Of a stretch of 64,000 nucleotides of DNA, positions 21,791 through 64,000 are shown piece after piece (position 1 is the stretch's first letter; the number at the start of each line of letters is the position of its first letter). Below the pieces are notes generated by a model that did not search any database, was not told the origin of the DNA, and saw nothing but the letters and a program-made list of their open reading frames with translations. The translations under genes and the position numbers were made by a program. This DNA comes from Psammoneis japonica. Its lineage: Eukaryota. Location of the stretch: the NCBI GenBank assembly GCA_008632985.1, contig QPGO01000114.1, forward strand, positions 186,001 through 250,000, written 5' to 3'.

Positions 21791-22049
21791 TTCTCTTCTC
21801 ACTTCTGTCCAGTTGGAGCAATGCACAGACCATTCCGAAACAGCCGCGAGCAACAGATTGCACAAGTGACTGACAAAAGCAGTCAAAAAAAAACATGTCA
21901 TTGGTTTTTGAGAGGTGGTTGCTCATTTTTTTCTCACCCTGCAAACATGGACTGCCAACACACATGATTTTTCAAAAAGTGAGACAAAACTTTGAGTGGC
22001 TGCATCGCCGCCATTGATTCCTCATTCACAGTGAAACACTCATGAGATT

Positions 22050-32700: not shown

Positions 32701-35610
32701 TTGGGACTGTTGATTGACTTCTCGTCAACAATGATCGCCATTTTGACTTTAGATTCTTCATGTGACAGATTTTTCACAAGAGCTCCATTTTCACAAGATT
32801 CCAGTTGGCGGCACGAGGTCCGATTCTCAAGAATCGATTTTCACAAGATTCCATGCAGGATTCTGCAGAATCTCAGATTCTGCAGAGTGGTTGCAGACAG
32901 TGCTGGATCAGGCATCGGGCATGTTGAATCCATCACAATCATGTGCCGGAACAGGCAGTTGCAACCGACAGTGCCGCTGGCATTTGTCAATGCTCCATCT
33001 TGTCTCTTTTGCATCTCATGTTGGCACATGTGATGATCTCAGCCGACCACAAGGTGGAAAAGGCGGTTGTCGTGATTGGATGTGGTTTTGCAGGAATCAT
33101 CTCAATGGCTCATCATTTGGAAAGAAGTTCAACATGATTTTGTTGGAAGCACGAGATGTGTCTGAGGACGAGTTTGGCAGTTTGGTGGACTTGACAATGA
33201 TGGAGCTTGTGTTGACGTCAGAGTGTCTTGGGTTCATGAAGTGTGTGACGAGAGTCCCTTTTCCAAAAGTTCAGGAACAATCTCAATGTTCCGTTTCATC
33301 AATCAGAGAAACAAGAGCACGCCACAGATGAAAATGACCAACCGACACCCCAATGAATGCAATGCACACCGTCATTGACAAGGATGGCAACAGAACAAGC
33401 AAATCATTGGATCATTTGTGAGCACACAAGGACTGTCTCCGAGCTTCCTCTTGCGTTTCTCTTCTGTCAGAGCTGTTGCAATCCTTGGGAACAAATGCAA
33501 TTCGGAAAAATGCAAGAAGACTTGGAAGCGCTCGCGGGAAAATTGCCTTTTGTTGTGCAGAGGGGAAGCCTGGCGGTCTCTGCATCTTGGGCTCGCCCCC
33601 CCCCCCCCCCCCAGGCGCACCAGGAATTCAAAAATGCACCTTGGCATCGTTTGCATGCAATGAAGATGCTGAGGGCCCCACACAGCCTCGCCCTAAATGC
33701 CAGCGACTGCAATTGGTGACAAAGCCAAACTTGGAACTGCTGAGAGACCACCCAGATGTCAAACAGCACGAGCCTGAAGAAGCCTCAAACCAGTGCAAAG
33801 AGAAGGTTGCAGAATGCACTGAATTCATCCAGGTGACACCAGAAGCACTCACCACGACAGAGATTTCCGCAGATGCACTTGAAATGAAGCGCAGTGCCAA
33901 ATGGGAGCTGTCCACAGTGGGCCAAGACTGGAATGATTTTCGAACCGAAACTTTTTCCCATTGCAGAACAAAAATTCTCGAAGAGGGCCATTGCTGCCAC
34001 AGGTGTGAGACACCCAACGGGAAGACAGCTTTTCTTGAGTGCGGCTGTCACAACATGCTTGCAAATGATCGACATGCAACTGGTGCATGTGGACTTCGCT
34101 TGTGCACAAAGTGCGTGTCAGATTTGGAAGAACTCAAATCGTTGAACCTTGAAGTCTGCAAAGTTTGCAAAACACTCTCTTGCCAGATCAACCCTGAAAC
34201 TGGAAGATGCAGGGACACCAACTGCATGGCTTGCCTGCACAAGGTGGCAGGAAACAGAACCTGCTTGGAGCACATTAAAGGAAAAGGATCCTCAAAGAAA
34301 AAGCGCGTGTGTGAGCTGTGTGTCAATGCACGCTCATTGGTGAAATTGGCGGAACCGACTGTTCAGAGTGTCGCGCCGCTTGACCTGGTGCCAAAAATGC
34401 AACAAAGGCATCGCAACGGTGGCACATGCAGCAACAACCTTTGCGATGGTCACCTCAACAGGGACATCCTGTCGTCTGTCCTTGACCACTGTGGATCTCT
34501 GGAATTGACACGGTTTGCTCTGGCAAGCTGCGACAACTTCCGCTTTTCCAAAGCTTGCGTCAAACGACTTTGTCAACAGTTGAAAAGCATTTCGTGCCTT
34601 CACAATCATTTCACTTGTGGAGCATCCTTTAAAAAACTTCATCATCTGGAGGAAGAAGTCTGTGATCGGTTTGGCTTTTTCGCTGTCGACGACTTTGAAG
34701 GCGCCCAGCATTGCCTTCGACGGCACGACAGACTTTCCTTCACAAAGGCTTGCGCACCACACTTCCACCCATCTAAAGGACACAGCATGATGCATTGTCA
34801 AGACACATTGGAGTTGGGTGCATCATCACTGGCAGGGCTCATTTGTGGCAACAAGATGCTTTGCTCGAATGTGGCATCACACTGTGTGATTGGATGGGTG
34901 AAGTCAACCACATTTGCATCTGCATTTTCCAAGATCGGGTTGGTGTCAACAGAATGTGATCCTTTGGAGCCATGCAGAGAACCCGATTCTCACTGGGTTG
35001 CACACCATGAGTTGCCTTTAAAACTCTTTCTGCCGAGGGAAGAGGATGGTCAGGACTCAGAGTTGTGTGAGGAGACTGAGGCACTTTTTGGACTCAAGCA
35101 TGAAGTCAGTGCCAGGACTCTTTGTCACTTTGTGTTCAGCGCCAATGATCTCCATCGTTTTTGTTGCTGTGATGCATTCGAACAACAAGTCACAGCCGCC
35201 GAGGGACAAGTCCCCGTCAATGACGAGTCAATGCCTGACGGTCCTCTTCATTGGGCAATTGTGACAATCAAGGGTCCTGATGATGGACTCATGTTTGGCA
35301 TCCCGGATCAATTGTCTTTGCGAGATTGCGCACAGAGAACATGAACATGCGCAACTCCTTGCCCGCATCATGGGCAGGAACCGCGGTCACGTCTCGTTGG
35401 TTTAGAGGCACTTCCTGTGGATCAAGATGGAAATTCTTTCTGCTGTCGACAATGTTGTGAAACAACTGCTTGTGCATGTCAAAAACAAATTGTGCTTGCA
35501 CCAGAGAGCAGAGATCATTGCGGCCACAGCTGCCACACACCATGCCGCAGCTGTTGAACAGCTGGCTTTAGAGGAGCATGGCATGTTAATTTGTCCACTC
35601 TCTGCTCCAG
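29730..35610. other. TpA-depleted domain
   Basis: TA is very rare; survivors are mostly CTAA, TTAA or TTAG. Confidence 0.85.
33641..35344 (+). pseudogene. TpA-hypermutated duplicate of an unknown gene (Cys-rich region plus F-box-like segment)
   Basis: The 622-aa ORF contains no Tyr. It is paralogous to 38305-39370 (HLNRDILSSVLDHCGSLEL vs HLNSDILSRVLDFCGSLEL), and the paralog's ATG is TTG here. Confidence 0.7.
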
Positions 35611-39370: not shown

Positions 39371-40809
39371 ATGCACAACTCTATGACTGTTCCATCAGTA
39401 GGAACTCCGATTTTGTCTCGTGGATTTAGATGAGGTGTCTGTGGATCAAGATGGAAATGCTTTCTCCCGCCGTTAATGTGAAATAACTGCTTTTACGTGT
39501 CAAAAACAAGTTGTGCTTACATAAGAGATCAGAGATGATTGCAAGCACAGCTACCACACACCATAACGTAGCTAGCTATCGTTAGAGCACAGCATGTTAG
39601 TGTAGCTTTTACTTCCGCCCAAAATTCGTACGCATAAAAGCTGAGACGATTGAGTCGATCAAGAACAAAACATCATGACGTGGCAAAATTCAACTCGCAT
39701 TTTCTTGCTCGGGAGAACCTCTCTACTCTAGCAGCTAGAGGAACAGTGCATTAGTCCCAGGGAGAACAGAACAAAATCCATTTTTTTGGCATCTCATCTG
39801 CAATGCTGCATCAAAGATCTCTCTGGGAAACTGAAACAAAGAGATTTACGGACAGACTGATTGTGCTCAACCGTGATTGGACTGACTTTGTTAAAAAAAA
39901 ACACCACATGGAAGCACCATGTTGTCTTGACTCATTTTGTGAGCTGCGCACTGCACTTCTCACCCACATTTGAGACTGCCCATCTTTCTCACCCAAATTC
40001 TTTCCCAAGAACAATTCCATGCCCTCAGCCATTGGCAGCGGCGGCAATGAAAGGAATTGACCAAAACGGCTGCTGCTTTGGTCCAATCCCATTGTTTGTT
40101 GGCTTGCACTTTGCAAGGCCTGGACAGTGGACTCCTTTCTTTGTGGAACAAGCTGCCCAGCTTCAAAAGAGAGCTGCGCTGGCCAGCACCACAAGAGGCT
40201 CAGCCCTTGCAGCAGAGAAAACTGCTCAGCAATTTTGCTCACTCTGCTTCTGGAACTGGCCAGGGTTTTGTGTCACAATGCACTGGACATTGAGTTGTGA
40301 ATGAAGTGATGCAGAGCAAAAGTCGTGGAGCGACAGGTCGGCGCACATGTGTTGGCAAGGATGTTTTGCACAGTGCGCACATTTTTTGCATGTTTGTGTG
40401 TTGAGCACAAGTGACTGAATCAGAAAATGACAATTGTGCACCTGAAAATTGCTTGGAGCTCCTTCGCTGCACATCACAGAGTTGCTTGCAAACAGCCCCA
40501 AGGGGCGTGCAGGTGGTGGACCTGTGTCTTTGCCAGGGTCCCACCACCACACAGTGAACCCAGAATTTTGACACAGGTGGCGAGCTAAAACGCCGTCAAC
40601 ATGCGCCAAAACCAAGATCTAAGATTTGACCCACCTTGGCAAGCTCGAAGTCCAGCAAAAAGGCTTGCCACATTTTCACTGCGGCCTCGGTCGGCTTGCA
40701 CACGCACGGCGGGTCGTCTCCATGGCGACGAGCGCCCGCGCGCGTCCGCGCGTGAGCAAGAGTGGCAAAAGCACAACCGTCCACATCTGATTTTGCACAC
40801 ATCACCACC

Positions 40810-43239: not shown

Positions 43240-46200
43240 TGAACCGCGACGGAAACGAGAACCTGCATGTGCGGAACGCGGACACAACAAGACAAGAACC
43301 AACCAAACACATCACCGAGAATGCTAAATTCCCCATTCCCGACTCTGACTCCACGTGGCATGCAGCAATCCGCCCGCTTTGTCTCATTGTCCGCCTGTCT
43401 GCCTCGTCCACATCACCTCCCCGAGGAGTCGTCTCCCTGTCCCCGTTTGTTTGGGGTCCACTCTGCTCTCTGGCTAGCTGGCAGCTCTCTGCTCTCTCTG
43501 CTGGAGAGAGAGATTTTCATTTCCACCATCATCCCACCACCTGGCTGTCAACCAAGTGCAAGCTTTGGCCATGGTCAATGTGTTTCATGCCACATCAGAG
43601 CGCGCATTGCAGCGATCACAGACCACCTTTCTCGCAGTCATTTTTTCAATCTGCCACAGCACAAAATTCTGTTGTTTCAAACCTTGACAGTTCTTGTGGA
43701 GCTGGCAACGACATTTCAACTGCAACAGATGAACATTTTTGTGCTGTGGGATCAGACCCCCCCCATGAGGAAAACATGTGTTTTGCCATGAAGCAGGGGC
43801 GCGTTTTCCCTGTGAGAGTGCCCGCCCTCCATCCCCGCAAAACCTGCAAATTAAAATCATTTGCGCTGTGCTGCAAACATTCTGTTTTGTTGCTCACATT
43901 TAAATCAAATGATGCTGATGGAGACAACACCCCAGAGTTTGTGCGGCAGCAGTTGCAGCTCGCTTTCTTGAAGTGCCGCTGCTTTTCAGCAGTTGTCTGC
44001 ATGAAGGGCAACCAAATTTGAGGCACCTTGGAGCACAGACAAGATGTTGGGCTTGTGAAGTCCAGAAAAGCTGCCATGTTTTTGTGCACTCACAACAAAA
44101 TGTCACAATCCAACCACACACCTCCAAAGGTGGACGGAAGTGTGCTGGTGGGAAGCACTGCGGCATCAGAAATCTTCATGGTTGATTTGCTGTTTTTGTG
44201 AAAGAAAAAACATTGTGTGTCTGTCATGGAGCGGCAGCCATGGACAGCGTGCAGACTTGTGGGGGGTCCCCATCAACAGTTTTTCCATGTCCTTGGCTCA
44301 GCGGGAGTCTTTCAAAAATGACTCGTGACATGAAACACACAAAACAATTGAGGGCGCCTGCAGAGTCCAAATGTTTTTGTGCTGAAACTGTTGTGTTCAC
44401 ACAATTTGTGCAAAAACAGACTTGACTGTTGTCGGGTCAGGCACTTTTTTGCAAATGAATTGAAGAAAAATGTGCCTGATCAGCATGTGTGCATGGTCAC
44501 CAGACTGTGCAGGCGTGTGTGCATGCATGAGGTGCAAGGTGCAAGTGGAGAATGATGTGCAGATTTGCTGCCACTGAGTGAGCTGACACGCAATGGATTT
44601 TCCACCAGCACACAACCCCGTGGTCCACATGGAAGATGAATTTGTGTGGGTCTCTTGGGTTTTTGCATGTCATCAAAATTTCTTTGATCTTCAAGAGACA
44701 CACGCCCAAATTCAAAAAATTCAGGGAGGCCGTTCCCAAAACATGTTTGAGGATGAACAAAAAAATTCTGTTTGGCAGTCTGAACAGGCCCAGGGTTGCC
44801 CCGAAGTGCTTCTCAAAATGTTTTTAGAGGGGCAAAACATCCGCCATTTCCAAAAAAGACCCTGCTGTTGGCAAAACAGATCCCAGTCCTTCACATGCAA
44901 ACAGCACCACAATGGCGCAGCAACGCACACAACAAACACCATGGCGGGCAATGCAAGTGTCATTCACTGATCTGCTTGCTGGCATTTCCAGAGAAGATCA
45001 GCACAATTGGACAACATTTGTGCACCGCATTCCTGGGTGAAGTTGGGTTTCTTCTCATTGCTTGTTGCCATGTCATTTTGCAACATTTTGACTTTCTCGT
45101 GTTTTTTGCTTTTTGAAACTTCTGCTTGCGCCAACCACCAACAGCTTTTCCTGCAGGGTGTGGCCAGTTGGATGGTTGCATCGAACCCAAACATGTGCAA
45201 CCAATTGGCCCCACCCCAGCTGACTCACAACCACATGGTCCACAATTGCCTTGGCACCTGTGCTGCAGAGGGTGCTGAGTGGGCCTGTGAGCAATGGCGA
45301 GACAGGAGAAACTGTGAGGAAAAAACTGTGCCACACTCAAAAAAGCATCAAACGCCCAAAAGATGCCATGTGTGCAACAAACAAACATGACCATCACATT
45401 GTCGACACTTTTGTCAGAAGTTCAGCCATTCTTGCCTTTGCAGCCCAAGTGCCAAGCTTGATTGTGAACGCTGCTGTGTCAGACACAGCAGCCCTGTTTG
45501 TGCCTCTCTCAGAGCAAAAGTCACGAAACACCCAAGAGGCAAGGAGCAGCATGAAATCCTCCACTGCAAGCATCATTTTTTCATCATCAGCATGTCAGCC
45601 CACAATGGCATTCATGCCATTGCCGCCACTGCAACGGGTGCCAGGTGGACCTGCGAGCCATCACAAAACAAGAGCAAGAACATTGTGGCGCCCATTTTTG
45701 TTGTTGAGATTCCTTCCTGTTTGTGTCACAAGACATGAAATCTGCCAGACTTGCCCTCACGTCTTCAAGATTTGTGAAAAAAGACACAAGTCCTGGTGCT
45801 CATGACCCAATGATTTTGTGTCTTGTCAACACAAATTCATGTTTTTTCAATGCTTTCCGGAGTGACCCACTGAGGCACATTCCCACCCTGATGATTTCGG
45901 CCGCAAAATGAACACAATTTGGCCAAATTTGTGCATTTGCGAGCATCAGGCTGGGAACAAATTTGATCGGCAAAAAAGATCAAAATCTCATGTCGAGCTC
46001 AGAAAGGAAACTGCACACTCCAGCACTGTTTGCACTGCTGCCAACTCTCTGGCTGGCCAGAGCTTCTAGAAAGGCCAACATCATGACATTGTCAGCAACC
46101 ATTGTTGTCCATTTTGTGATTGCTCTGTGGCAACCAAAGACTCATGATGACACCAGCGAAGGTCAGAAGAAAACACCCAACATCCGATCTGCTGGCAGGA

Positions 46201-48004
46201 GTTGCAGAGAGAGCAGAGAGGCACACAAAACAATGGTGTGCAGCAAGGCTGCAGCACGCAAAACTGCCAAATGAAATTTCCACAGCATGTGAGGTGCTGA
46301 AAGGCGCTGTTCTTAACTCCCGTGGTTTGCCAATGGCCCAAATCCATTTCAAAGAGCAAGGGCCATAGAAAACAGAGCAAAGCACTGTGAGGCACATTGC
46401 CGACAATGTTCTTGTGCAAAACACTGACCCCCACCAGCGTCATTGTCCCAACTTGCAACAAGGTCAATGAGGTGAGTGCACACAGCCTTCTTCACAGTCA
46501 TGTTCCATCTCAAGGGAGCACAAGCCTTCTTGCTGTTGTCATTGACATGACAAAAATTCTTTTGTTTTCTTGACTCTTGACCATCAGTCAAGCAACAACC
46601 TTGAATGTGCGCCAAAGAACCATGTCAACGCAGTGTCAGATCACACATTGCTGCAAAGATTTGGCCTCCAAGTCTGCAGATGCATGGTTTGCAAAGAGCT
46701 CCAATGCAAAATCTGAACAAGAGAAACAATGACATCAAAAACAGCATTGGTCAGCACGGTCGTCACAAGCCATGCCAACAACAAAAACTCAAGATTCTGA
46801 CAAATGGACTGCATCAAGCACAGTCTTGTTGACCTGTCTCTGCATTCTTGCCTTTGCAGACAGGATGGTCATTTGTGCATGAACAGGTCCGTTCATGGCA
46901 GCAGCCACAATGGTTGTTGTGTGGATCAGAGCAGAGAGAGAAGGGTTTTGGGTGATGGGGGCTCCTCTTGTGGCCCCAGATTTCTCCTCAGATGAAAGAA
47001 AAACATCCTGCACTTGTTTGTTGCCAGTTGTGACGAACACAGTCTTTTCGTCTTGCAGCCAACATTGTGGCACTTTCATCTCTGTTGGTTGGCCAGTCCA
47101 CAGTGCACAGCAGCCGCTGCAGCGCTTCAAGTGGTCCACCAAAAGAAGCTTGGCTGCGTGGCTCATCTCTTGTGCTGCAGATGGCTCCTTTCCTTTTGCA
47201 ATCATTTTCTTGTGCAGAGCTGGCAGAAACGCCATTTGACTGCAGCGGCACAGCTGCATGATCTGGCCCCATGCCAACATTGTGAGAGGAGGCCAGCCCC
47301 CGCTGTGGTGGCAGCTCCTGGTCCGGGGCTGTGCCCCGCAGCTGGCCTTGCTGGCGCACAGCCCCACAAACATGCACATTTCCTTTGACGCCAAACCACA
47401 GGAAAATGCACTCTCAGTTGCCTGTCTGTTGTGTTGCAGCAGGTGGATCATTTCCTTTTGCAGCCATTTTTTTCACAAAGAGCTGGCTGCTGGGCTGCCA
47501 AGCAGCCTTGGTGCTGCTGCTCACACCAGGTGCAGTGTGAGAGCAGACCTGACACCTGATTGCTGAGAGTCAGTCTTCAATCTGTCAAGTGCAAACTCAA
47601 ATTTAACCCTTCAACCACCAGGGGAGCAAATCTCCATGGGTGGAGATTTGCTCTGCTGCTCTCAAGAATTTGTGATGCGTCATGCACTCACAGTGCACAC
47701 AGTGTGAAAATGTCACATCATGCACAATCTGCTCCAAGGGTGTGGTGTCATTGCTCTGTTTGTGATGGCAGCTGAAGCAACCTCCATTGTCAAAAAGGTT
47801 GAGATTTGGCTCCTCTCTGTTCACAGATGAAGCTTGCAAAAAAAACCGGTGTTGAAAGTTGACATTTGGCTTTCTAAATTGCAAAAAGGGTTCCCCAGAT
47901 TTTTGGCGAATGTGCGCTCCAAAACAAAATCGCACAAATGAAACACCGCACACATCTGAAATTGCTTCGCTCACCATGTTTGTGATGAAAGCAAGCAAAT
48001 TTCC
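43240..48004. other. TpA- and CpG-depleted decayed repeat domain (continues at 55114-55600 beyond the copia)
   Basis: TA is very rare; contains copies of 18493-18690 (at ~44966-45160) and of 56530-56940 (at ~45250-45660). Confidence 0.82.
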
Positions 48005-48280
48005 TGACAGGATTTGAACAGGATTTAGGTGCGCGCGAAGTATCGCGCGCTGTTTAGTTTACCGTGCACAGTTTTGTGTGCTTTAGTTCCGCGCGTTCAC
48101 GCGCGATGTAGTTTGCTTTCGAGCCACAAGGCTCACAAGAATAATAACAGTAGCCCGATTATACCGACTTACACGTCTCTCGGCTCCTGTAACGGTCTCT
48201 GAGCGGAGACTCATCTGCTATTTAGACAGCAGTAAGGAGTTATTGTTTGAATTCTTGCCATTTGCCTTCAATTTCTGTCA
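48005..48280 (+). repeat. 5' LTR of copia copy 2
   Basis: TGACA...TGTCA termini; direct repeat of 54837-55113. Confidence 0.95.
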
Positions 48281-48295
48281 GATTAACAGTCTTGC
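48281..48295 (+). promoter_or_regulatory. Primer-binding site (complementary to a tRNA-Asn anticodon arm)
   Basis: GATTAACAGTCTTGC immediately after the LTR; the reverse complement contains CAAGA-CTGTTAA-TC. Confidence 0.6.
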
Positions 48296-49218
48296 TCATT
48301 GTCAACCCATTGAGCAACCGCCATCGTCGTCGTTGATTTACCAACGACGCCATTTCAATTCTACGTGGACCCCGTATATATTCTACATACATCGGCAAGT
48401 CTACGCGCATTCGATACCAGGGCATCGGCAGGAAGTTAACGTCACCGTCAAGTCTCCTTACCGCTGGATATCTGGATTGATTATACTACCTTTGACCGCT
48501 GAAGACATACATTCAACGGTCATATCCAAGTCTATCCTTGATCCTCATCCCTTCATATACCCATTCATCGGTTAACGGTCAAGAACCCTACATATTCAAG
48601 GATCTTCGTCGCTGAAGACATGTGTGTATATACACATCTTCACGGCCAAGAACCTGTACCCACTCTTCGGACCACGGTTTTGCTGCCACTCTACAGGCAC
48701 ACCGAGTCCATTGCACCTGATCTACCCCGGACCACTGGTGCTCTACAGTTCTGCCAGGTCCACGAGGACGACTGTGAGAGCAAGCAGCCGTGATTGCAGC
48801 CTGCGTTGGGGCGAGGGTGCTTTCCCACGTTTGTTCGTTCGTCCACAGCGCCTGACGCCTGCGTCAACTGGCCAGCCTGATCGGGAAATCCAACCGACAC
48901 AAAATGAGAACGGTTCGGGGGTCTTGTCCACCTCTGGTCAGCTCACCTGCAGGGGTTTGCAACCCGCCACTCCGCTCGCAAGCAACCCAAAGCGCCGCCA
49001 GCTGCGGGTTCGGACGTGCCGGCACAACTCTGCGGACCGGATGGGAAGTTTAGCACTTGACAACGAACGGGATGACAAAGCCCGGCGACTTCTGATTTTA
49101 AGACAGTTCAAGATTTCAAGTCAAGTCTGTTTCAAGTCAAGTCTGTTCTCACCCAAGTTTCGAGTCTACCTTCTCTTCCCAACCAGAATTGATTGTCCTG
49201 ACACCACTTTTGTCCACC

Positions 49219-52200
49219 ATGGTTCTCACTCGTCAGCAACAAACCGATGGTTTCGAGCATGTGGTTGGAACCGTGCTTGCCCAAGGTGCTGGGAGTCCTC
49301 TTCGTTTGGCTTTGGCCCAAGACGGCACGGACTCGTGTCAGGAACTGTCCACGTTCATGCCGTCCCAAATCGACTCGCTTGAGCACGACAGCGGCACTGA
49401 TGCAATCCCTTTGCCCCGTGGTTATGAGAACATGTCAGCAGCACCAGTCAGTCTGTACATTGTCAAAGCACACAAAGGTCTTGACGTTGCCAACGACTCC
49501 TCTTTGTTCGCGCATGACGAGTTCCTTGCCTGCCGCCTCAGCCCCGACTGCATGTCTTCTGTGTCCATCGGCAGCTCACCCCTTGCACCTCCACATGTCA
49601 CCAACCCAACCAAGGCACGCGACCCGGTGCGGGACTTCAAGCGAGGCATCAAGCGTGATCCCACCGCTTTCACGGCTCTCAAATCCGACAAGCAGTGGCA
49701 CACTTGGCACACCTCACTTGTGGCACAAGCCCGTGCCCAAGACGTCGAGTGCACTCTAAACTCGTCGTACAAACCGACCAGCCCCGAAGACAAACTGCTC
49801 TTTGCTGAACAGCAAAAGTGCATGTTCGCCGTCTTTTGAACGCATCCTCCTCACCAACAAGGGCAAAGCTCTCATTCGCGAAAATGTGGGGTCTTCTGAC
49901 GCACAGACCGTCTGCCGCTCCTTGTCTGAGTGCATGCTTGCCTCCACCCGCGCATCTGTCGAGTCCTCCACCCTGCTCACGCACCTGACCACCGCGCGTC
50001 TTGGTGATGGCACTTGGAAAGGTCCGACCCACGGGTTCATCCTTCATTGGCAAGATCAGTTGCGCAAGTGCGAGGCACTCATCCCGGCCAGTGACCACTT
50101 CTCTGAAGGACAGAAGCGCGTCATGCTCGAGAATGCCGCGCACCCTGTCGAGGAACTCCGTGCTGTCAAGAACCAAGCTGATCAGCATCGTGCGCAGAGT
50201 GGCAAGAGCCTCACATGCGATCAACACTGTGGCTTGCTCCTCTCCGCGGCAGCTCAGTGCGACAGCACGTTTCAACCCAAGACGACACCTCGAGCTCCCC
50301 GACGCGCCATGTGCGCACATGACGTCCACTCCGAGGAACCGTCCGACGATGTGTTCTGCGACATTGACAGCGACGTTGACGTCCTTCAGGCCAATGCTGC
50401 CTGCACCCGCGGTCCCAGCCTCACCGGTGTCCAATGGAGACATCTCCCTCCCGACCACCAACGGCTCTGGGATTCGTTGCCCGATTCCTCCAAGGCGATC
50501 ATCCTTGAGCATTCTCGTCCACCTCCCCGCAACCCGCGAGCCAGCAACTGCCATGAGTCTGTTACGGCCAACCTTCACGACCAACGCCTTGGGAGTGACG
50601 GTGATGTCAACTTGTCCAACACGACTCCTGCTGACTCTGGTGACTCCGCTCCACATGCGGACGCCACTTCGGACAATCCCATCCTGGCGCACCTCACCAA
50701 GCGCAAGCCACTGCCACCCGGTGATCTGCAACGTCTGTTGTCTCCCAACCAAGCCCACAATGCCAGTCGACCGGGGCCATCCGCCGCTTCCTCTGCCCCG
50801 CCAGCTTCTGCAGATGACATGGAACTTGACGGCCGCACTTGCCGCCGCGTCAACAATCACAATGTCATTTGCTCTGCCTCTGCTCATCGCTCCACACGCA
50901 CTGGTGCTCTAGTCGATCGTGGGGCCAACGGCGGCATTGCTGGCGACGACGTTCGCGTCATTGCACGCACCTCTCGCCAAGTCGACGTTCAGGGCATTGA
51001 CGATCATCAATTGGTGGACATCCCCATTGTCACCGCTGGCGCCGTTGTTGAGACCCAGCGTGGTCCCGTCATCGCCATCCTCCATCAGTGCGCATGCACG
51101 GGCAAGGGCAAGACCATCCATTCCTGCGGCCAGCTCGAATGGTGCAAACAGGATGTCAACGATCGCTCTGTCAAGGTGCCCAACGGCTTGCAACGTGTTG
51201 CCACTCCTGATGGCCATGTCATCCCCATTGACATCAAGGCCGGCCTGCCTTGTGTTGCCATGCGACCTCACACTGACGCCGAATGGGACACCCTGCCCCA
51301 TGTCATCCTCACCGGTGATGACACATGGGACCCTTCCGTCCTCGATCACTCTGTCACTGACGACGACCAGTGGTGCGACGCGATCTCTGACCTGCAGGAC
51401 GATCCCACTGCCAACCCATTTGACGAATGCGGCAACTGCCGTCATCGTGTCATTGTCAACGAGACCATCATGTCCGCTTCCTTGTCTGCCGATCACGCGT
51501 CCGCCCTCGATGATCACCTCATTCCGAATGACGACGTGTTCTGCGAGTGTCATCTGCATGCGATTGGCCCCCAGGGCGACGACGTTCCACCTCCGGCGCG
51601 CACTGTGCAGCCCAAGGACCCCCCCTTCGAGTCTCTTCGGCCTTGCTTTGGCTTCTTACCTGCTGATGCGGTCCGTCGTACTTTTGACTGCACCACGCAG
51701 TGCGCCCGCATGCCCGCCGGTGCACACCTTCGCAAGGCCTGCAAATCACCCAACCCCGCCCTTGATGTGCACCGCCGCAACGAGCCTGTCGCCACTGACA
51801 CCGTTCATGCCGACACCCCGGCCGTCGACTCTGGTTGCACCAGCGCCCAACTGTTTGTTGGCACCGAGTCTACCGTCACTGACGTCTGCGGCACTAAGAC
51901 GGACAAAGAGTTTGTCAACACACTCGAGGATCAGATCCGTGAACGTGGTGCCCCATCCAAACTCATTGGCAACCGTGCTCAAGTTGAGATCAGCAACAAA
52001 GTGCTCGGGATCCTACGCGCCCTCTTCATCTCTAGCTGGCAAAGTGAGCCTCACCAGCAACACCAAAACTTTGCCGAACGTCGACACCAGACCGTGAAGC
52101 GCATGGCGAACACTGTCATGGATCGTTTTGGTTCGCCCGCCCACACATGGCTGCTGGCGCTCATGTGCGTGTGCTTCATGCTCAACCATGCAGCGTCCCC

Positions 52201-54889
52201 ACGTCTCCACTGGCGCACGCCCCTCGAGACTCTCACTGGCTCCACCCCGGACATCAGCCCGTTGCTTCGCTTTCATTGGTGGGAACCCGTGTGCTTCCAC
52301 CTCGATGACTCTGATTGGCCGTCTGAATCCCGTGAGTTGCGTGGACGCTTCGTTGGCATTGCTGAGCACGTCGGCCACCAGATGACCTTCAAGATTCTAT
52401 CTGACGAGACTCAGAAGATCCTCTGCCGGTCCAACGTCCGCTCCGCTGCCCCCGATCCTGCCGTTCGAAACCTGCGTCTTGATCCTCCTGATGGGGAGCC
52501 ACCTGAACCCATCATCAAATCTCGCCATGACGACAACCCCGTCGACTCTCCTGATGGGGAGATCAGGACACCCAAGATGCCAGTTTTCGATCCGCAAGAC
52601 ATCATTGGACGTGCCTTCCTCATGCAGCCACAAGAGGACGGACAACGCCACAGAGCTCGCATCGTCAAGGCCGTCGAAGACCACGAATGGAAAGTCAACG
52701 GCAATCCCGAGCTCACTGAGTTCGTCTGCTCTGTCAACAATGATGAATGCGAGGAAGTCCTTGCCTGCAATGACATCATGAATCACATTGAGCAAGAAGA
52801 CGAAGATGCCACTGTTTGGAAATTTCGACGCATCGTGTCGCACGAAGGACCTCTGAAGCCTCACGACCCAACCTGGAAAGGCTCCAGCTACAACATCATG
52901 CTTGAATGGGAAAGTGGGGAGATCACGTCCGAGCCTCTTGCCATCATCGCCAAGGACGACCCCGTCACCTGTGCCATCTATGCACGAGAGAACGGACTCC
53001 TCGACACGGATGGCTGGAAGCGGTTCTGCACCATCGCGAGGCGCCAAAAGAAGCTGTTTCGCATGGCCAACCAAGCCAAGCTTCGCTCCTTCCGCACTGC
53101 ACCTCGCTGCAAGCATGGATGCGAAGTTCCTCGGAACTACAAACACGCCATGTCACCAGACGAACGCAACGGCAATCGCAAGTGGGGAGACGCAACTAAT
53201 CTCGAGATGGACCAACTCGACGAATACGAAGTCTTCCATGACTGCGGGCCCTTCAAGTCTTCCACTCCTCCTGCGGGACACAAGAAGATCCGAGTGCACC
53301 TGGTGTGCGACGTGAAACACGACGGTCGCCACAAGGCACGACTCGCAGCCGACGGGCACCTCATGGACGTACCTGTCGACAGTGTCCACTCCGGAGCAGT
53401 CTCCCTCCGTGGCCTTCGGCTGATGATTTTCCTGGCCGAACTCAACGAGTTGGAGACATGGGCCACCGACATTGGCAATGCCTGCCTTGAAGCCACCACC
53501 AAGGAGAAGCTTTACATTGTGGCTGGACCCGAGTTCGGCAAACTCGAAGGACACATCCTTGTCATCCACAAGGCATTGCATGGACTGCGCAGCTCCGGTC
53601 TCCGCTGGCACGAGCGCTTCGCCGACTGCCTGCGAGCTGAAGGCTTCTTCCCCTGCCGCGCCGAACCCGACATTTGGATGCGCAGGAACGGCGACCACTG
53701 TGAATGCATTGCCGTTTATGTGGATGACCTCGCCATTGCCATGAAGGACCCTCAATCTTTCGTCGACACTCTCACGGAAAAGTGCAAGTTCAAGCTCAAG
53801 GGTGCGGGACCCATTGAGTTCCATCTGGGTTGCGACTTTTCCCGGGACCCCGACGGAACCTTGTGCCTGTCTCCGCGCAAGTACATCGAGCGCATGGTCG
53901 ACAGCTGCGCCCGACTGTTTGGGGAGAAACCCACCACCAACGCCCTGTCACCTCTAGAGAAGGGTGACCACCCCGAACTGGACACTTCCGAACTGCTGGG
54001 ACCCGATGGCATTCACAAGTTTCAGTCTCTTGTTGGTTCACTCCAATGGGCAGTGTCCCTTGGTCGAATTGACATCACCACGGCCGTCATGTCGCTCTCC
54101 AGCTTCCGAGCTGCGCCCCGTCAAGGCCACTTGGACCGTGCCAAATGCGTCTGTGGGCACCTCTCCAAGATGCGACACGGTGCTCTCCGCGTTCGCACGG
54201 AAGAGCCCGACTGTTCGGATCTCCCTGCTCCGGCCTGTGAATGGATGCATTCCGTGTGTGGTGAAGCAGAAGAGATGATCCCGAAGGACGCTCCACCGCC
54301 CCTTGGCAAGTTCGTCACTGCCACCCACTGCGTCGATGCAAACTTGCACCATTGCATGCTCACCGGACGCTCTGTCATGGGAATGCTCCACTTCCTCAAC
54401 AAATTCCCAGCTGATTGGTTCTCTGAGAAACAAGCCACCGTGGAGACTGCGACCTGCGGGTCTGAATTTGTTGCCGCAAGGACTTGTGTTGAGCAGATTG
54501 TCGACCTGCGCATCACCCTGCGCCACCTTGGCATCCCGATCCGTAACGTCAGTCACATGTTCGGTGACAACAAGTCGGTTGTAGACAGTGCCACCATCCC
54601 GCACTCCAAGTTACACAAGCGACACACCGCACTGTCGTTCCACCGTGTGCGTGAGGCAATTGCCTCTGGTTGCCTTGAGTTCCACTTCATCGAAGGCTCC
54701 CGCAACCCTGCTGACATTCTCAGCAAGCATTGGGGTCACTCCCAAATCTGGGACCTTCTCCGCCCCCTCATGTTCTGGAACTTCATTCCATCCGAAGTCG
54801 AATCTGTTTCTGTGGCTCCTCAAGCAAACTGGGGAGTGACAGGATTTGAACAGGATTTAGGTGCGCGTGAAGCATCGTGCGCTGTTTAG
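49219..54889 (+). pseudogene. copia gag-pol with a 1-nt insertion near 49836 and pervasive Tyr>Cys/His changes
   Basis: Protease LVDRGANGG, integrase QNFAERR, RT AVYVDD, RNase H CGSEF..GDNKS..NPADILSK. gtcttttgaa here vs gtcttcgaa in copy 1. Confidence 0.9.
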
Positions 54890-55113
54890 TTTGCCGTGCA
54901 CAGTTTTGTGTGCTTTAGTTCCGCGCGTTCGCGCGCGATGCAGTTTGCTTTCGAGCCACAAGGCTCACAAGAACAATGACAGCAGCCCGATTGTGCCGAC
55001 TTGCACGTCTCTCGGCTCCTGCAACGGTCTCTGAGCGGAGACTCATCTGCTGTTTAAGACAGCAGCAAGGAGTTGTTGTTTGAATTCTTGCCATTTGCCT
55101 TCAATTTCTGTCA
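54837..55113 (+). repeat. 3' LTR of copia copy 2 (TpA-mutated)
   Basis: Follows the PPT and is followed by the TSD. Confidence 0.95.
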
Positions 55114-56529
55114 TTTCCACCCGTGGAGATTTGCTCAAGTCCAGTGGTTGAAGGGTTGTTTGCACAAGCAGTGAGAGCTGAGAGCCTGAGTCTTGCAGCA
55201 AAGCCACACAAAGGGATTTTGTGTTTGCCAAGCTTGCTTGGGTTTTCTCCTGCCTCTCTTTTCACTCGCGCACTTGCCAAAGAGAAACAGCACAGCATTC
55301 TGCTCATTGGCAGTTTTGGCAGGAAAGGTTTGGCAGCAAAAACAGAACGTTGGCTGTTGCTGTGCAAGTTGTGAAAATGTGGAGTCTGGGAAGCAGCACA
55401 GCAGCTGCAGGAAGAAGCTTTTGTTGCTCATTTTTGTGTTTTCTCTCACGTCTCTTGCCATTGACACACTTGTCACAGCAAAACATGGGTGTCATGCACC
55501 GCCATTTTTGGCAGGATGAGACTGGTTTGCGAAGTGCAAAATTGCATGTGGAGTGACACTGACATCAGGAACTGGTAAACTCTAGAGAGCAGAGGTCACG
55601 ATTCACATTGAGAACCATTGTGGAGAAACTGTGCTCCAAGATCTAAGAAGAAGCAAAAACAATGACAGGAGCTGCATGACCGTTTCGATTCTTTTCCTGT
55701 CCATTTTACGAATTTTTGTTTTGGTTTTGACATTTCCAATAAACGACCAGAAAAGACGAAAAAATGCGCCAAAACGATGGCCCACATGGACCGGACACAA
55801 CGCAGACACACAACACAGCCGCACGTATACCATGCCGTTACACCCAAAATTCTACCCAAGTAGGTTAGTATTTTTCTACTGGAAAGTGGAATTCTCGTAT
55901 GTAAAAATGTCAATACGGTGTTGGTATCTTCTAAAAAGATCTACCGTACATCCACTGTTTATTCCACTCAGGTAGAAGGCACAGTAGAATTTTCGGAGCC
56001 AAAAATTCTACCCTGCGCGCCCCTTTCGCGCGATCTAAACAGTCTGTCCTTGGTGCGTGATGTCGAGTGCGACGGGAGGAACAAAAAAAATACTCGAAAG
56101 TTCTACTCGTCTCAATGCGGCATCTCAACCATGAGCGTTGCCGTATGCAACCCCGGCAACTGCACCAATCCCAACTGCATCTATGGTGGCATGGCAAGCA
56201 GCACTCACAGGCGTCCTGAGTGCAGTAGAAACCTTCACACTCCCTGTGGGAAAGCAGACGAACGACTTGCACTACTTTCAACTTTGACAAGCTCTAAAGC
56301 ACCTATTTGAGATTACTGTTGTGAATTTTATATTTAAATATTACTAAACAATTGCATTAGCCTAAGGAACAATCAGCACCTCATTGCACTTCCACCAGCT
56401 TGAGAAGAAAACAAGCTGCTCCCTAGCGCGGAAGGCACGACCAAGGGTTGCTGCCGTTGATCTTTAAATAGATTGTTCCGCATCCTTGGCTTGAGATACA
56501 TTTTTTTATAACTATTTGGTCCGTATTCA

Positions 56530-59249: not shown

Positions 59250-60342
59250 GACTTTCTGTTCTTGTGCCGTTCAGACGTTTCTCGCCATGTGGCACCGGCT
59301 CTAACACAGCAAATGAATCAGCAGCACACAACACATCTGAAAAGCAGCACCCCGACGATGTGGAAATTCAAGCACATGCTGAGTGTGCCATCCATCTACA
59401 GACCTTGCTGTCAGTGTGCGGATGGGAGTGGGGGCGGGGGCTTTGTCATGGAGGAAACCACAGGCAGCCAACAAAGCACTCCTCTCCATGAACATGGTTG
59501 TTCCCAAATGCCTTTGTCACATGAAGGAGTCAGAGGATTTTATGGTGTGCAATTGTTGGGATGCTTTTCAGTGCTCGTTCTTGATGAGATGCTCATGATG
59601 TGTTGCTCTTTCTGAAAGATTTTTTCAAGCTCTCTTTCTGTGACATGTCCCACCTTTTTGTAAGTTGCTTTGCCTGCTTGTGGAGCAAGGAGAAATGTCA
59701 TTGCCGTGTGCTGCTTTGGATGTCTGTCTTGTCTTTTTCCATTGACTTCAGATGTCTGGCAGAACAGTTTGTGCATCATGCTTTGCATGGCTTTGAAACA
59801 TGAACAGTTGTGGCTGATGTGCAAAACCCAAGCAGCAGCAGCTCTTTGGTGTTTGCAGCACTTTTGCAAAGTGCTGCCCAATTTAGCACCCAACTCCAAG
59901 AGCGTCTGAGCTCTCAGTGCATCACTGCAAAAAATGGAAAACTCCTGTGGAAGAGGAGAACATGGCACCAAGTTCACAACATGTCTTGCACATGCTGCCA
60001 CCTTTTGAGATTTGCTTGAGGGGGTGCTCATGCAATGAAAACCAGACAGCAGGAACAGCAGCGGGAATCTGGCAGGAATTGAAATCTCATGTGAGCAGCA
60101 CAAAGACCTCTGCAGTGTCAAGGAAACAGCGACAAAGCAATGAGTTGCATGTTTCTCACCACCAACTGGCAAAAAAGCATCTGTGCCATTGTGCCATTCT
60201 GGCGACATTTCTTGCAATGCAGCACTGGCACCAAGACAGCAAATGAGTGAGCCTTGTTGTCAGCAGCAGAACAGATGCTTCAATGACCAGCACTCTGGAG
60301 AAAACATGTGGAGCCCAAAACAACATGTCACAGCTGCAGCCT

Positions 60343-60374
<32 letters not shown>

Positions 60375-63300
60375 GCATCAATTGCCCTGGTGTTGTGCTT
60401 CAGAAGCACATTCAAAACATTTGCTCTGTTTTCACACTGAGTTGCCAGGTGGAGAGCTGCAAATCTGCCAACACGGTCTGCATCTCATGACAAGGATTTG
60501 ATCCCACCAATCTTGGCTCCATGCTCCAGCAACAGTCGAGCACCATTTTCGTTCCCACCTGTTGCGGCATGTGCTGCAACAGCCTGTGCCCCATTTCACC
60601 TTGTTGGTGGATGTTTGTGTGCTGGGCAGTGCCACATGACAAGAGCCCACAAAGAGTTGACTTGTGCCCACAGATGCAGTTGAGTGCCAGTGGTGTAAAC
60701 CCCCAGTCGTTGCACTCCCATTGCCAAAGAATCAAAATCTCTTGCAGCGTCAGCAACAGAGTGGATGTCTTCCTCTGTTCCAAGCACAACAGCTGTGTGC
60801 AAAACATCCTCAATGTCTGGGAACCGCTGCTGTCCCTTGGCCTTTTGAAGCCATTTGCAAAGCAGCTCCACTCCTTGCTCCCCGAGAGCTTGGACAAAAT
60901 TTTCACGGGGGTTGTCACACTGCGCCATTGCAGAAGTGTTGTGATCAACAAGGACGAACTGGCAAAAAATGTGAAATGTGCAGTGTGATTGTGGCAAGAT
61001 GATGATGGCAAAACAAGGGCAGCAACACACTGCTTGGATGAAACATTGTGCAGTGTGGTGCAATGGAAGAATGTTGCCAATGCTCGCTTGTTTTTTTTTT
61101 GCTTCTTTCTGAGTTCTGCCATTCTCTCGGAAGACTGCTTTTTGTCACACTCACATTTCAAGCTTTTCTCCATTCATCTTCTGATTCAGGCACATTCACT
61201 GGAACACTCTTGCATTTGACCAATGAGCAATGTTGTCATCCCCACCATGAGCAATCCTTGGCAAGGTTGGGGCATCCAAAAGGAGTGGCACTGCACCGCC
61301 ATCAGTCTGCCCAGCATCCGTCCCTGTCAGCACTGACAATGCAGGCAGCTTGAGTGGGAGCAGCTGATGGTGCCACTGGCAATGGGTTGGTTGAAATGTC
61401 ATGTGTCATCAGCATTGTCAAATGCATTCTCTGTGGCAGTCTGCTCCAACTCCTCTGCTGTCAGCTCCAAGGGAGGCTCATTGCTGGAACAGTTTTGAAA
61501 AGCAGCAGCCAGATTGTTGCTCTGTTCTTCCCAACCTGGCCTTGCAATTTTTTCCAACAGGCCACAGCAGTCCACTCCTGTGGTGTCCTTGAGCATTGCC
61601 AGCTCTTGTGTCACTTTCCACTTGTTGTGGTGGATTCTGAGCACAGAAGGGAGCTTGGGAAAAATCGTGACATGGCCCACTTTCAGTTTGAACAATCTTG
61701 CCAACACAACCCAAGTTTTCCAGGTGGGTTTTGAATGATTCCTTAAGAAAATCATTGCAAATCCACTTTTCGTTTGGATGGCTGATGTGCAATGGGGGGC
61801 CTCTGAGTTCCATGCATTCTTGCAAAAAAGCAAGAAGAGCCCCTTGTGTGAGATTTTGCATGTCGACATTACATTGAGCAACACACGGCATGCAGGGCTC
61901 ACCAGCAAGAAACTTCAAGTTGCCTGTGAGCTTGGGATCTGGTGTGTCTTGGTGCTTGACAAACTTTTCACCACAAGTCAATGGCCCCACTCCAAGTGCA
62001 ACAAACTCCTCTGCTGGTTTGAACAAGGACTGGTCAGTGTGGTGGGGAAATGGATCACAGCCAAACAACTTGAGCACTGAAAGTTGCACTCAATTGACAA
62101 CATTGTGACATGGCATGCCAAAGTCATGGCAATCACCACATCACATCCCAGCATTTGTGCTGCATTGACGTGTGTGACAAGGAGAAGCAAGAAGTGCCCC
62201 ACCTCTGCACCAAACTTGATTGCAAAACATTGGGTGCACATTCTGGCTGTCCGACAGCTCAGATGCTGGAATCTTCCCCGCACACCTCACATTTGCAATT
62301 TGGGCCTTCAAAACACTGCAAAGCCACAAATGCAGACATGGATCCAATGCCGCACACTCCTTTAAGTCCTCACAGATTTTCATGATTCTCCAGTCTGCAT
62401 TCTGGCCAAACTTGTCAATGCATGCCTCAAGAAGTCAAGCACAGAGTTTTTGCATGCTGCAGCCCTCCAGATGATTGGAGCCCAGTTGTTTTGCTAACTC
62501 CATTGTTTCAATTGCTCTTGGCGGTGCACTGATTTCCAAGAGCATGGCATCCACCAACATCAAATGAGACATTCATGGCAGCAGGAATGCCTTTTGGAAG
62601 CTGGCGGCATGTCAGCTGCATCAAAAAGACCTGTTTCTGTCAAGTCAAGAACCACGACTTTATCGCAGAGCTGGGGTGGAAAGCATGTCTGAACCACCCG
62701 CGTTGTCAATCAAATGCATTGGCTGACAATGCCACCCATGGGACTCAAGAGTGCCACACTTGCCACAGTGGATGCATTTGTGCTCATTCAGAGCCAACCT
62801 TGTGGATTTCCCATTGTGCCCAAATGGGTCAAAATGAAAAACCCATGCAGCCCCCTTTGCCCAATTAAAAGGGTCAAGAGTCAGAAGTGACACAGCTGAA
62901 ATGTTGGGCGGATGCCACTGCTGCTTGCTGTTCTCACATGCACCTGCATTGCTGGAGCTCATGACTGCATTCTTGACTCCTTCCAAGCAATTCAACAGCA
63001 GTGAGCCAGGCTGGGGTTTGCACTGAGACAACTCACACTCTTCTTTTTTGTTGCTTTGCTGATGTCATGTTCAGTGTCTTCATCACAGTCTTCATCATTG
63101 TCGCTAAAACGCGCCTCGTCATCGTCGTCACCTTCCTCCTGTCCTTGTGCCAACCCAGTTCTGGCAATGTCTGCAGCTGCAGCGAGCCTCTCCAGTGCCT
63201 GAATTTGCTTTTCCTCATCTCTCTTCTGTTTGTTGAGACACTCTTGTGCCAGAGCCTCTTGTCTTTCCCTTGCTCTGTCTGCTGGCAGCTCTGCTTCTGC

Positions 63301-64000
63301 TGCTTTCTGCTGCTTGGCTTGTTGCTTGCACCAAGCTTCTGCAACTGTCAACACCAGCTGAGCACTCTGCTTTTGAGCCAATTCTTTGTTTTGATCATGC
63401 TTGGCTCCAAAAACAGCTCCTTGTCCTTTGGCGTGCGAGACTGGTCTGCCAGACCCCTTTCCATTGCTGCCACTGCTGGCTCCGCCTGTGGCAATGGTGC
63501 TTCACAATGTGAGTGTGAGAGCAATGGAAAGCATTTGTGAACATCTGGGTTGCTGCAGTGTGATGACTCCTCTTGCTTTGCTTGAGTCAAGTCAATCAAA
63601 AAGCTCTGCCCACGCCAGGTGAAAAAATGCCTTTTGCACCACATGGATCTGTGCGGAGTGTTCCTGATCTTTCATTGTGCTCATTTGTTGGATGAAAAAG
63701 GTTGTTGGTGTGCAACGACCAACTCAGGTCAACACGTTGCCTTTCATTGACATCAACAAGCACCGGCACACAAACCCTGTTTCACCTCTGGAAAAGTCAA
63801 AGCATTTGGGATGTCACAATGGAAAGTGTCTCAAGCCAAGCTCTGGGTGCACACTGAGGGTGCCATCTCCAACAGCTGCTTCTTTGCAAAGATGACAATG
63901 CCCATCATTGCAAACAAAGTTCAACCTCAAATGATGCCAGTGGAGAGGTGCCTTGTGCACCACTGCACTGGCTTGTCAAAGAACCAAATGACATTGCCAA
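59250..64000. other. TpA- and CpG-depleted decayed repeat domain running to the window edge
   Basis: TA is very rare and TG/CA saturated; no recognisable intact domain. Confidence 0.8.
59345..60100 (+). pseudogene. TpA-mutated tandem duplicate of the MYND gene 3' end and its downstream region (58285-59100)
   Basis: cccgacgatgtgga.attcaag, catgaaca.ggttgttcc.aaatgc, tcaagctctctttct and ggctttgaaacatgaac are shared. Confidence 0.75.

Follow-up and report, generated by a model that had tools for sequence, protein, structure and literature searches.

The closest described system is found in the chlorarachniophyte Bigelowiella natans, where, according to the accessible part of a preprint, the integrated DNA of nucleocytoplasmic large DNA viruses (NCLDV) and virophages is hypermutated from TpA to TpG or CpA (Mettrop et al., bioRxiv 2026, 10.64898/2026.01.13.699255). 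The same partial text states that in mutation-accumulation lines the giant-virus and virophage regions mutate at ~6e-7 per site per generation, ~1000 times the rate in the rest of the genome, that the changes are almost solely TpA>TpG and TpA>CpA on both strands, and that TpA-depleted coding sequences are enriched in reverse-transcriptase and DDE domains; it proposes, without a test, an ADAT2-like adenosine deaminase as the editor and mentions that ADAR favors a 5' U (10.64898/2026.01.13.699255). The present analysis deals with a single 64,000-base stretch of DNA (the window; contig QPGO01000114.1 of a Psammoneis japonica assembly, with all coordinates given as window positions) and, in particular, with a Ty1/Copia-type long terminal repeat (LTR) retrotransposon at 48005-55113, recognized by its LTR pair, target-site duplication (TSD), and RVT_2 frame. 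The best explanation of its mutations, which we consider probable, is a TpA>TpG/CpA process that acts on chromosomal double-stranded DNA (dsDNA), is confined to non-genic domains, and is of the same kind as in B. natans.

Fungal repeat-induced point mutation (RIP) consists of C>T changes, mainly CpA>TpA, and creates TpA, stop codons, and AT-rich DNA. The process seen here resembles RIP in its dinucleotide-specific transitions on both strands, in the irreversible inactivation of transposons, and in sharp-edged domains that adjoin intact genes. It differs from RIP in destroying TpA, removing TAA and TAG, and raising the GC content, and in the existence of unmutated repeated copies. Specifically, the RIP hallmark of C>T changes that create TpA and stop codons is contradicted by the ancestral state of TA and by the fall of TAA and TAG in the depleted domains, both described below. 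Editing by ADAR or APOBEC3 also leaves a deaminase-type signature on retroelements. However, it affects RNA or single-stranded cDNA before integration and on one strand, whereas the window contains changes on both strands, unequal LTRs, and mutated DNA in which no retroelement is recognized. Diatoms encode DNMT4, a relative of the fungal RID, and the available part of the source reports no such mutation for it, although it does describe CpG methylation of diatom transposons (PMC9998398). An enzyme that is related to RID and resembles cytosine methyltransferases would not account for A:T>G:C changes.

The retrotransposon at 48005-55113 (copy A) and a second member of the same family (copy B) consist of the following parts.

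48000..48004 (+): left copy of the TSD TTTCC, read directly from the sequence
48005..48280 (+): 5' LTR of copy A, unmutated, with 17 TA
48560..48900 (+): transition zone within copy A, mutated and intact TA sites mixed
49760..54889 (+): Copia gag-pol frame, 1709 amino acids (aa) from stop to stop, with RVT_2
54837..55113 (+): 3' LTR of copy A, 13 of 17 TA lost, 2 CpG lost
55114..55118 (+): right copy of the TSD TTTCC, read directly from the sequence
1..5650 (-): Copia copy B, truncated by the window start, 96.4% identical to copy A

Copy A combines TG..CA LTR ends (the LTR starts with TGACAG and finishes with CTGTCA), a 5-bp TSD, and a pol frame with the RVT_2 domain (Pfam, E = 1.7e-23), the features of the Ty1/Copia type. 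Homologues of this frame with 60 to 70% identity contain PF07727. The 10 bases at 47992-48001 (CAAGCAAATT), on the 5' side of the 5' LTR region, resemble those at 54823-54832 (CAAGCAAACT), upstream of the 3' LTR. This similarity may be due to chance or may go back to an earlier tandem or nested organization.

Alignment of the two LTRs of copy A reveals 16 substitutions and 1 indel. In 13 of these substitutions, TA in the 5' LTR corresponds to TG (7 sites) or CA (6 sites) in the 3' LTR; the others are two CG>TG changes and one CA/CG difference. An earlier note on this DNA, made from the sequence alone, had likewise given 16 substitutions and 1 indel, with 13 TA>TG or TA>CA, 2 CG>TG, and 1 CA/CG. 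As the TA bases constitute 12% of the LTR, the probability of at least 13 of 16 substitutions falling there is 6e-10. Loss of TA affects 13 of 17 sites in the 3' LTR and none of 17 in the 5' LTR (Fisher P = 5e-6). The 5' LTR and the next ~460 bp (to 48744) have a TpA observed/expected ratio (o/e) of 0.93. Surviving TA and mutated sites are interleaved at 48562-48752, and the segment 48745-49050 contains no TA at all.

The direction of change is TA>TG/CA. In a three-way comparison of the 5' and 3' LTRs of copy A and the 5' LTR of copy B, five sites read TA, CA, and TG. TA is ancestral at these sites because the other states are one step each from TA and two steps from other ancestors. At five further sites, the 3' LTR of copy A and the 5' LTR of copy B both have TG, which agrees with independent hits that lead to the same product in 50% of cases. 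The encoded protein carries the same record. Of 120 listed homologues, 88 exceed 1600 aa in length; the frame of copy A was aligned to the first 50 of these, and columns with Tyr in at least 80% of these 50 full-length homologues, 39 in all, were defined as conserved. In these columns, copy A has 19 Cys, 11 His, 6 Tyr, and 3 Phe residues; most other residue classes of its frame are retained at ~80 to 100%. Tyr makes up 0.4% of the frame, compared to a median of 3.85% in the homologues, and no Tyr-poor protein is found among the top 120 protein homologues. Replacement of Tyr by Cys and His is the coding footprint of TA>TG/CA because this change turns TAY codons into TGY or CAY.

Pairs of paralogous sequences elsewhere in the window display the following changes, from the first member to the second.

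38388-39573 to 34390-35552: 48 TA become 3 TA, 14 TG, 22 CA, and 9 other
56517-56948 to 45236-45677: 15 TA become 9 TG, 3 CA, and 3 other
35906-36709 to 39808-40602: 29 TA become 1 TA, 11 TG, 5 CA, 1 CG, and 11 other; 43 CG become 20 TG, 11 CA, 6 CG, and 6 other
10026-10147 to 5651-5772 (122-bp flank of copy B): 12 TA become 7 TG and 5 CA; all 15 differences are transitions

The last of these homologies was not extended by BLAST with purines and pyrimidines collapsed, which produced meaningless two-letter matches that were discarded. Variation among read contigs was sampled in 40 of 453 rows. In this sample, 11 rows from the element and 3 from its flank represent single sites with TG or CA in the window and TA in other contigs; TA accounts for 68 to 100% of the summed depth at 11 sites and for 9%, 20%, and 42% at the remaining three. 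The polarity opposite to that of RIP, postulated in the earlier note, is thus borne out by the three LTRs, the conserved Tyr residues, and the paralogue pairs, and the reverse order, with TG/CA ancestral and TA derived, is excluded by the three LTRs, the conserved Tyr residues, and the read contigs. A RIP-type CA>TA change in the 5' LTR was also considered and is ruled out by the three-way LTR comparison and the conserved Tyr columns.

Both products are found in each Copia copy, with TG/CA counts of 30/21 in copy A, 50/38 in copy B, and 7/6 in the 3' LTR of copy A, which sum to 87:65 (P = 0.09). A runs test reveals no significant clustering by strand in either copy (P = 0.86 for copy A and P = 0.15 for copy B). 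The presence of both outcomes and the absence of strand runs indicate many independent single-site events on either strand; the earlier note had also placed the changes on both strands. Double changes from TA to CG are essentially absent (0 to 1 per table); each site changes once because either hit destroys the palindromic TpA target. Among 166 ancestral TA sites, framed as attack on A, the mutated fraction depends on the +1 base, with values of 0.59 for C, 0.47 for T, 0.29 for A, and 0.29 for G (chi-square P = 3e-4), and most of the TA that persist in depleted DNA are part of TTA or TAA. The dinucleotide AA is not depleted, with o/e of 1.21 in depleted DNA and 1.13 in normal DNA. The process is therefore specific for TpA, prefers TAY, and acts on both strands. 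Two general explanations were rejected: GC-biased gene conversion, which is not dinucleotide-specific, and selection against TA, given that the outcome is randomly TG or CA in each copy and that conserved residues are destroyed.

The chemistry might be deamination of adenine to hypoxanthine in the T-A-Y context by a TadA/ADAT2-like deaminase, for which we see a nearly even chance. The earlier note had named a TadA/ADAT-like deaminase and, alternatively, 6mA followed by deamination as candidate mechanisms. An attack on thymine is rather unlikely. In this scheme, a TET/JBP-type enzyme would modify the T of TpA in silent chromatin (e.g., to 5-hydroxymethyluracil), and mispairing or faulty excision repair would result in T>C. 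Owing to the palindromic nature of TpA, every change fits T>C equally with A>G, the context preference then reading R-T-A, and in dinoflagellates thymine is preferentially replaced at TpA. Against this stands U-A as the natural context of the TadA/ADAT enzymes. Further, the analysis yielded no evidence for such a modified base in diatoms, though it made no search aimed at it, and the sole experimental report of the signature, as far as its accessible text goes, favors an A-deaminase, itself without proof (10.64898/2026.01.13.699255).

The substrate of the process is double-stranded and most likely chromosomal DNA. In the course of LTR reverse transcription, RNA editing results in identical LTRs with A>G changes on the sense strand only, and editing of minus-strand cDNA could alter the 3' LTR, by TA>CA only. 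The occurrence of both types of change in the 3' LTR and of none in the 5' LTR, together with the mutation of sequences without a retroelement match, points to action on dsDNA. The view of the earlier note that the changes arose in chromosomal DNA after integration agrees with the 7 TG and 6 CA in the 3' LTR, versus 0 in the 5' LTR, within one TSD-flanked insertion. Alternatively, a deaminase similar to ADAR or APOBEC3 might have acted inside the particle, on RNA or cDNA of the retrotransposon, so that insertions would be hypermutated from the start, the 5' sparing of copy A reflecting a reverse-transcription gradient. Copy A is indeed spared in its 5' LTR and the following ~460 bp and carries mutations from that point through the 3' LTR, a shape like the gradient of APOBEC3-type minus-strand editing, and sites discordant between copies A and B are also expected if the copies were edited separately before insertion. 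However, the one-strand expectation fails in the 3' LTR, where both TG and CA are found and which differs from an intact 5' LTR; the overall ratio of 87 TG to 65 CA comes with no strand runs; and DNA without a transposon match (the tandem array and duplicated blocks described below and the 122-bp flank at 5651-5772) is mutated as well. Such pre-integration editing is very unlikely.

Copy B provides a measure of the tempo of the chromosomal process. It is 96.4% identical to copy A over 5653 columns, has its 5' LTR at 5377-5650, and is mutated where copy A is spared (4906-5650, TpA o/e 0.29). In its LTR, substitutions have removed 12 TA but not a single CpG. The two copies differ by 200 substitutions and 3 gap columns, and 186 of the substitutions (93%) belong to the (TA or CG)>(TG or CA) system, as follows.

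TA versus TG/CA: 51 (44 with TA in copy A)
CG versus TG/CA: 47
TG/CA discordant between the copies: 44 dinucleotides, 88 substitutions
Other single transitions: 11
Transversions: 3

The mutation of copies A and B has thus been independent and recent. For the interior of copy A (48900-53657, 4756 sites), rough ratios were obtained with a simple model. According to this model, ~102 TA were present when the copies split, and each copy has since lost ~78% of them; survival per copy is 0.22 for TA and 0.935 for CpG. The pairwise background divergence is 0.0023, as only 11 substitutions in the 4756 interior sites fall outside the TA/CG system. The TA hazard comes to ~1300 times the background, a rough historical estimate derived from these 11 background substitutions and not measured in lines, and the CpG hazard, obtained in the same way from the same 11 substitutions, to ~58 times the background. 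TA is lost ~23 times faster than CpG. Methyl-CpG decay represents a second process in the same domains, evident from the 47 differences of CG versus TG/CA between copies A and B and from CpG o/e values down to 0.03. It cannot remove TpA and is ~23 times slower per site.

The earlier note had listed error-prone repair by a Pol eta-like polymerase with its WA motif among the candidate mechanisms. In such a model, deamination of 5-methylcytosine in methylated repeats would recruit mismatch repair and a Pol eta-like polymerase, which would miscopy WA in the repaired patch. Pol eta does prefer WA motifs, and the two kinds of decay share their targets, in that all CpG-decayed domains of the window are also TA-free. 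However, WA includes AA, which is not depleted (1.21 vs 1.13), a result that disfavors this candidate. In addition, substitutions outside the TA/CG system are limited to the 11 in 4756 sites, the LTR of copy B has lost 12 TA with zero CpG lost by substitution, and a ~23-fold excess of TA loss over CpG loss is hard to square with a by-product of CpG events. Patch repair is therefore a highly unlikely source of the footprint.

The TpA>TpG/CpA process on chromosomal DNA reaches far beyond the Copia copies. The depleted domains, 1-7800, 10128-10769, 17693-24600, 29750-35400, 39892-40700, 43300-48004, 48900-55750, and 59250-64000, comprise 38,118 of the 64,000 bases, or 60% of the window. They contain 155 TA, with o/e of 0.07 for TpA, 0.54 for CpG, 1.62 for TG, and 1.68 for CA, compared with 1111 TA and respective values of 0.60, 0.96, 1.16, and 1.21 in the rest of the window. 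By the kilobase, TpA o/e is 0.00 to 0.2 in the depleted domains versus 0.4 to 0.8 elsewhere. The longest TA-free run extends over 1798 bp (P ~5e-35 at the genic TA frequency). Domain edges are sharp to within ~100 to 200 bp: TA is dense until 10127 and then missing for 642 bp, and again dense until 17693 and then missing for 1798 bp. The statement of the earlier note that sharply bounded domains take up over half of the window is thus accurate. The parts of these domains are as follows (no strand unless given).

5651..7800: flank of copy B, TpA o/e 0.18, CpG 0.89
6813-7271 (-): RT_RNaseH remnant of the gypsy type (E = 4.5e-6), within this TA-depleted flank
10128..10769: TA-free island of 642 bp, CpG o/e 0.32, TA-dense flanks
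17693..24600: old domain with tandem arrays, TpA o/e 0.00-0.05, CpG 0.03-0.25
29750..35400: TA-depleted domain, includes part of the mutated paralogue 34390-35552
39892..40700: TA- and CpG-depleted domain, overlaps the mutated paralogue 39808-40602
43300..48004: old TA-free domain, insertion target of copy A, TpA o/e 0.00-0.04, CpG 0.2-0.36
55114..55750: downstream flank of copy A, TA-depleted, TpA o/e 0.11, CpG 0.36
59250..64000: old TA-free domain that runs off the window, TpA o/e 0.02-0.06, CpG 0.14-0.25

A Pfam search with 82 frames from the depleted domains yields one match, the gypsy RNase H remnant; both Copia copies are also located there. The TA-normal parts contain genes or gene pieces for an amidohydrolase, a lipase, a cyclase, PhyH, a TPP enzyme, an amine oxidase, P450, and zf-MYND. 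All recognizable genes are found in these parts (TpA o/e 0.60), in line with the earlier remark that neighboring genes are untouched. The young Copia copies are TA-poor yet CpG-rich (0.9), and every CpG-decayed domain of the window is also TA-free. This combination of TA-poor, CpG-rich young copies with doubly depleted old domains fits two clocks that run at different speeds on the same targets.

Between the rest of the window and the depleted domains, TAA falls from 8.5 to 1.9 per kb and TAG from 9.5 to 0.9 per kb, so that reading frames stay open and long spurious open reading frames (ORFs) arise. TA-free DNA contains open frames of up to 640 aa without a family match, such as 33422-35344 (+). 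Most likely, these frames are artefacts that arise because hypermutated DNA has hardly any TAA or TAG left, and they may be called by gene finders.

Loss of TA is a property of chromosomal domains and not of the Copia element alone. The six pairwise comparisons among four units of the 336-bp tandem array at 22313-23606 give a total of 247 substitutions, 96 of which are due to CA/TG discordant dinucleotides. Of the two duplicated blocks, copy 1 (33624-37096) is mutated in its left part (TpA o/e 0.05) and copy 2 (38288-41042) in its right part (0.06), whereas the partner parts are normal (0.58 to 0.62). The repeat at 55339-58006 has 7 to 16 times the single-copy read depth, yet its TA content is normal. 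Accordingly, the description of the process as repeat-associated holds in part. Transposons and tandem arrays are among the targets; on the other hand, non-genic DNA that cannot be annotated is affected as well, one copy of each duplicated part is spared, and so is the repeat at 55339-58006. The spared 5' end of copy A, the opposite parts of the duplicated blocks, and the TA-rich read depth of the Copia family (see below) argue against a simple RIP-like trigger by duplication, and targeting that depends on locus or chromatin is the favored candidate.

A technical origin of the signature was weighed against reads and environmental relatives. Sequencing, base calling, or polishing might go wrong at a modified TpA, or the DNA might be foreign and natively TA-poor; the reads come from one sample and one study (contigs of four runs), with the library type not on record. 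Contigs assembled from exact 31-mers, with a depth of ~70 for single-copy parts, nevertheless match the old TA-free domains with 0 to 1 differences, in the following pieces.

44413-45160
45439-45902
46480-47195
59392-61131
63299-63771

This match excludes a consensus or polishing error, though the sample is not independent. The same signature is also found on metagenome contigs from other assemblies. Of 50 metagenome loci encoding relatives of the pol protein, 47 have TpA o/e of 0.5 to 1.0, indicating that the lineage of the element is not natively TA-poor. The other three are TA-poor, with conserved Tyr residues replaced by Cys or His.

L036: TpA o/e 0.13, conserved Tyr now Cys/His at 11 of 15 positions
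L029: TpA o/e 0.27, conserved Tyr now Cys/His at 13 of 16 positions
L014: TpA o/e 0.31, conserved Tyr now Cys/His at 13 of 23 positions

L029 and L036 are 94.5% identical and occur in different contig sets; 73 of the 99 substitutions between them, including 20 TG/CA discordant dinucleotides, belong to the TA/TG/CA/CG system. Eight further loci (L006, L026, L034, L039, and L046 to L049) are CpG-poor (o/e 0.13 to 0.30) with normal TpA (0.52 to 0.85), so the TpA process is no general companion of CpG decay across the hosts of this element lineage. No relatives of the element were found in a scan of viral contigs. The TpA signature is not an assembly artefact, and with the conserved Tyr codons destroyed and the relatives TA-normal, the chance that any artefact or a natively TA-poor origin explains it is close to nil.

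Taken together, the footprint would be produced as follows. In chromosomal dsDNA, TpA would be changed to TpG or CpA on either strand, with a single hit per site. The targets would be sharply bounded non-genic domains, namely, LTR retrotransposons, their remnants, tandem arrays, and duplicated non-coding blocks. The rate would be about a thousandfold above background substitution, with a methyl-CpG-type decay proceeding ~23 times more slowly in the same domains. The consequences would include the death of elements by missense changes (Tyr to Cys or His), a rise in GC, and removal of TAA and TAG that leaves frames open. Targeting may follow silent, methylated chromatin, and the process may serve genome defense.

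Several observations weigh against this explanation or narrow it. The first 740 bp of copy A are intact despite mutated DNA on both sides and a mutated counterpart in copy B, and gene conversion of these 740 bp from an intact copy would give the same LTR asymmetry. Even then, the changes in the 3' LTR would be post-insertion, and the interleaved zone at 48560-48750 resembles a graded edge rather than one crossover. At the displayed sites with TG or CA in copy A, TA still makes up most of the read depth of the Copia family; the summed depth of this family is 66,000 to 137,000, compared with ~70 for a single copy, and should not be read as copy number. Mutation affects opposite parts of the duplicated blocks 33624-37096 and 38288-41042. 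The ratio of the TA rate to the background is based on 11 background substitutions, all supporting reads stem from one sample of one study, from which the assembly was probably made, and the palindromic TpA does not allow the sequence to separate attack on A from attack on T. Finally, the affinity of the host derives from named proteins of 41 to 53% identity. The best named relative of the amidohydrolase is from Seminavis (53% identity), and those of the cyclase are from Amphiprora, Amphora, Epithemia, and Seminavis (38 to 47% identity). Judged by these relatives, the host is apparently a raphid pennate diatom.

Several other features of the window deserve mention. Its genes are intron-poor. 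Copy B adjoins an older retroelement of a different type, the gypsy-type RT_RNaseH remnant at 6813-7271. The 642-bp island 10128-10769 carries a 13-bp direct repeat, CAGTCGCATGCTG, at 10130-10142 and 10742-10754, just within both its ends, and may have originated from a small insertion or from recombination. The two duplicated blocks are separated by a region with an amine-oxidase fragment (37325-37648), and a PhyH frame (40756-42042) begins at the right end of copy 2. The ORF 28552-29475 (+) has a start that resembles a signal peptide, followed by ~200 aa of Lys/Gly/Tyr-rich tandem repeats (YEGKGKGYEYAKGKG...) with a DNA period of 81 bp and 94% identity. This Tyr-rich ORF is in TA-normal DNA, ends ~275 bp before a TA-free domain, has no match in Pfam, and possibly encodes a secreted structural or biosilica-type protein. 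A single N is found at 32208, within a TA-depleted domain.

The process in the window shares with that of B. natans, as the accessible text of the preprint describes it, the almost exclusive TpA>TpG/CpA change on both strands, the confinement to foreign or selfish DNA, and the increase in GC (10.64898/2026.01.13.699255). The rate there, measured in lines, is about three orders of magnitude above the background, and the rough historical estimate of ~1300-fold here, from 11 background substitutions, would be of similar size. The host, however, is a rhizarian (chlorarachniophyte) there and a diatom-like stramenopile here; the targets are viral there and consist of LTR retrotransposons, tandem arrays, and old remnants here; and the depletion is saturating here, with o/e of 0.00 to 0.1 over kilobases, in contrast to 0.45 in the viral region there. 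The parallel, slower CpG decay and the TAY preference count as further differences, and de novo events are recorded in the lines of B. natans, whereas the window holds a historical footprint alone (same partial source). In a word search, "diatom," "stramenopil," "retrotranspos," and "LTR" were absent from the available text of the preprint. The earlier note had put the phenomenon forward as a candidate undescribed system, which does not hold in view of the TpA>TpG/CpA hypermutation that this text reports for B. natans (10.64898/2026.01.13.699255). Literature searches found no description of such hypermutation in diatoms or LTR elements, although papers outside those searched could exist. The process is thus not categorically new; the window adds a second case, much closer to saturation, from a distant lineage and with a different class of targets.

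This footprint has practical consequences for annotation, as TA-free DNA devoid of TAA and TAG gives rise to long spurious open frames, and hypermutated copies diverge so fast that repeat finders and estimates of LTR age are misled. It is conceivable, though doubtful, that diatoms and chlorarachniophytes share an ancient chromatin-guided "anti-RIP" in which silenced transposons and integrated viruses lose their TpA through adenine deamination in chromosomal dsDNA. A second, very distant host turns the single case of B. natans into a comparative problem of genomes with and without the footprint, which is seen in 3 of 50 environmental elements. A comparison of footprints across diatom genomes could lead to an enzyme that naturally edits adenine (or thymine) in dsDNA. 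If the footprint is that of a dedicated system, it would represent a DNA-editing defense of a polarity opposite to that of RIP in major marine primary producers.

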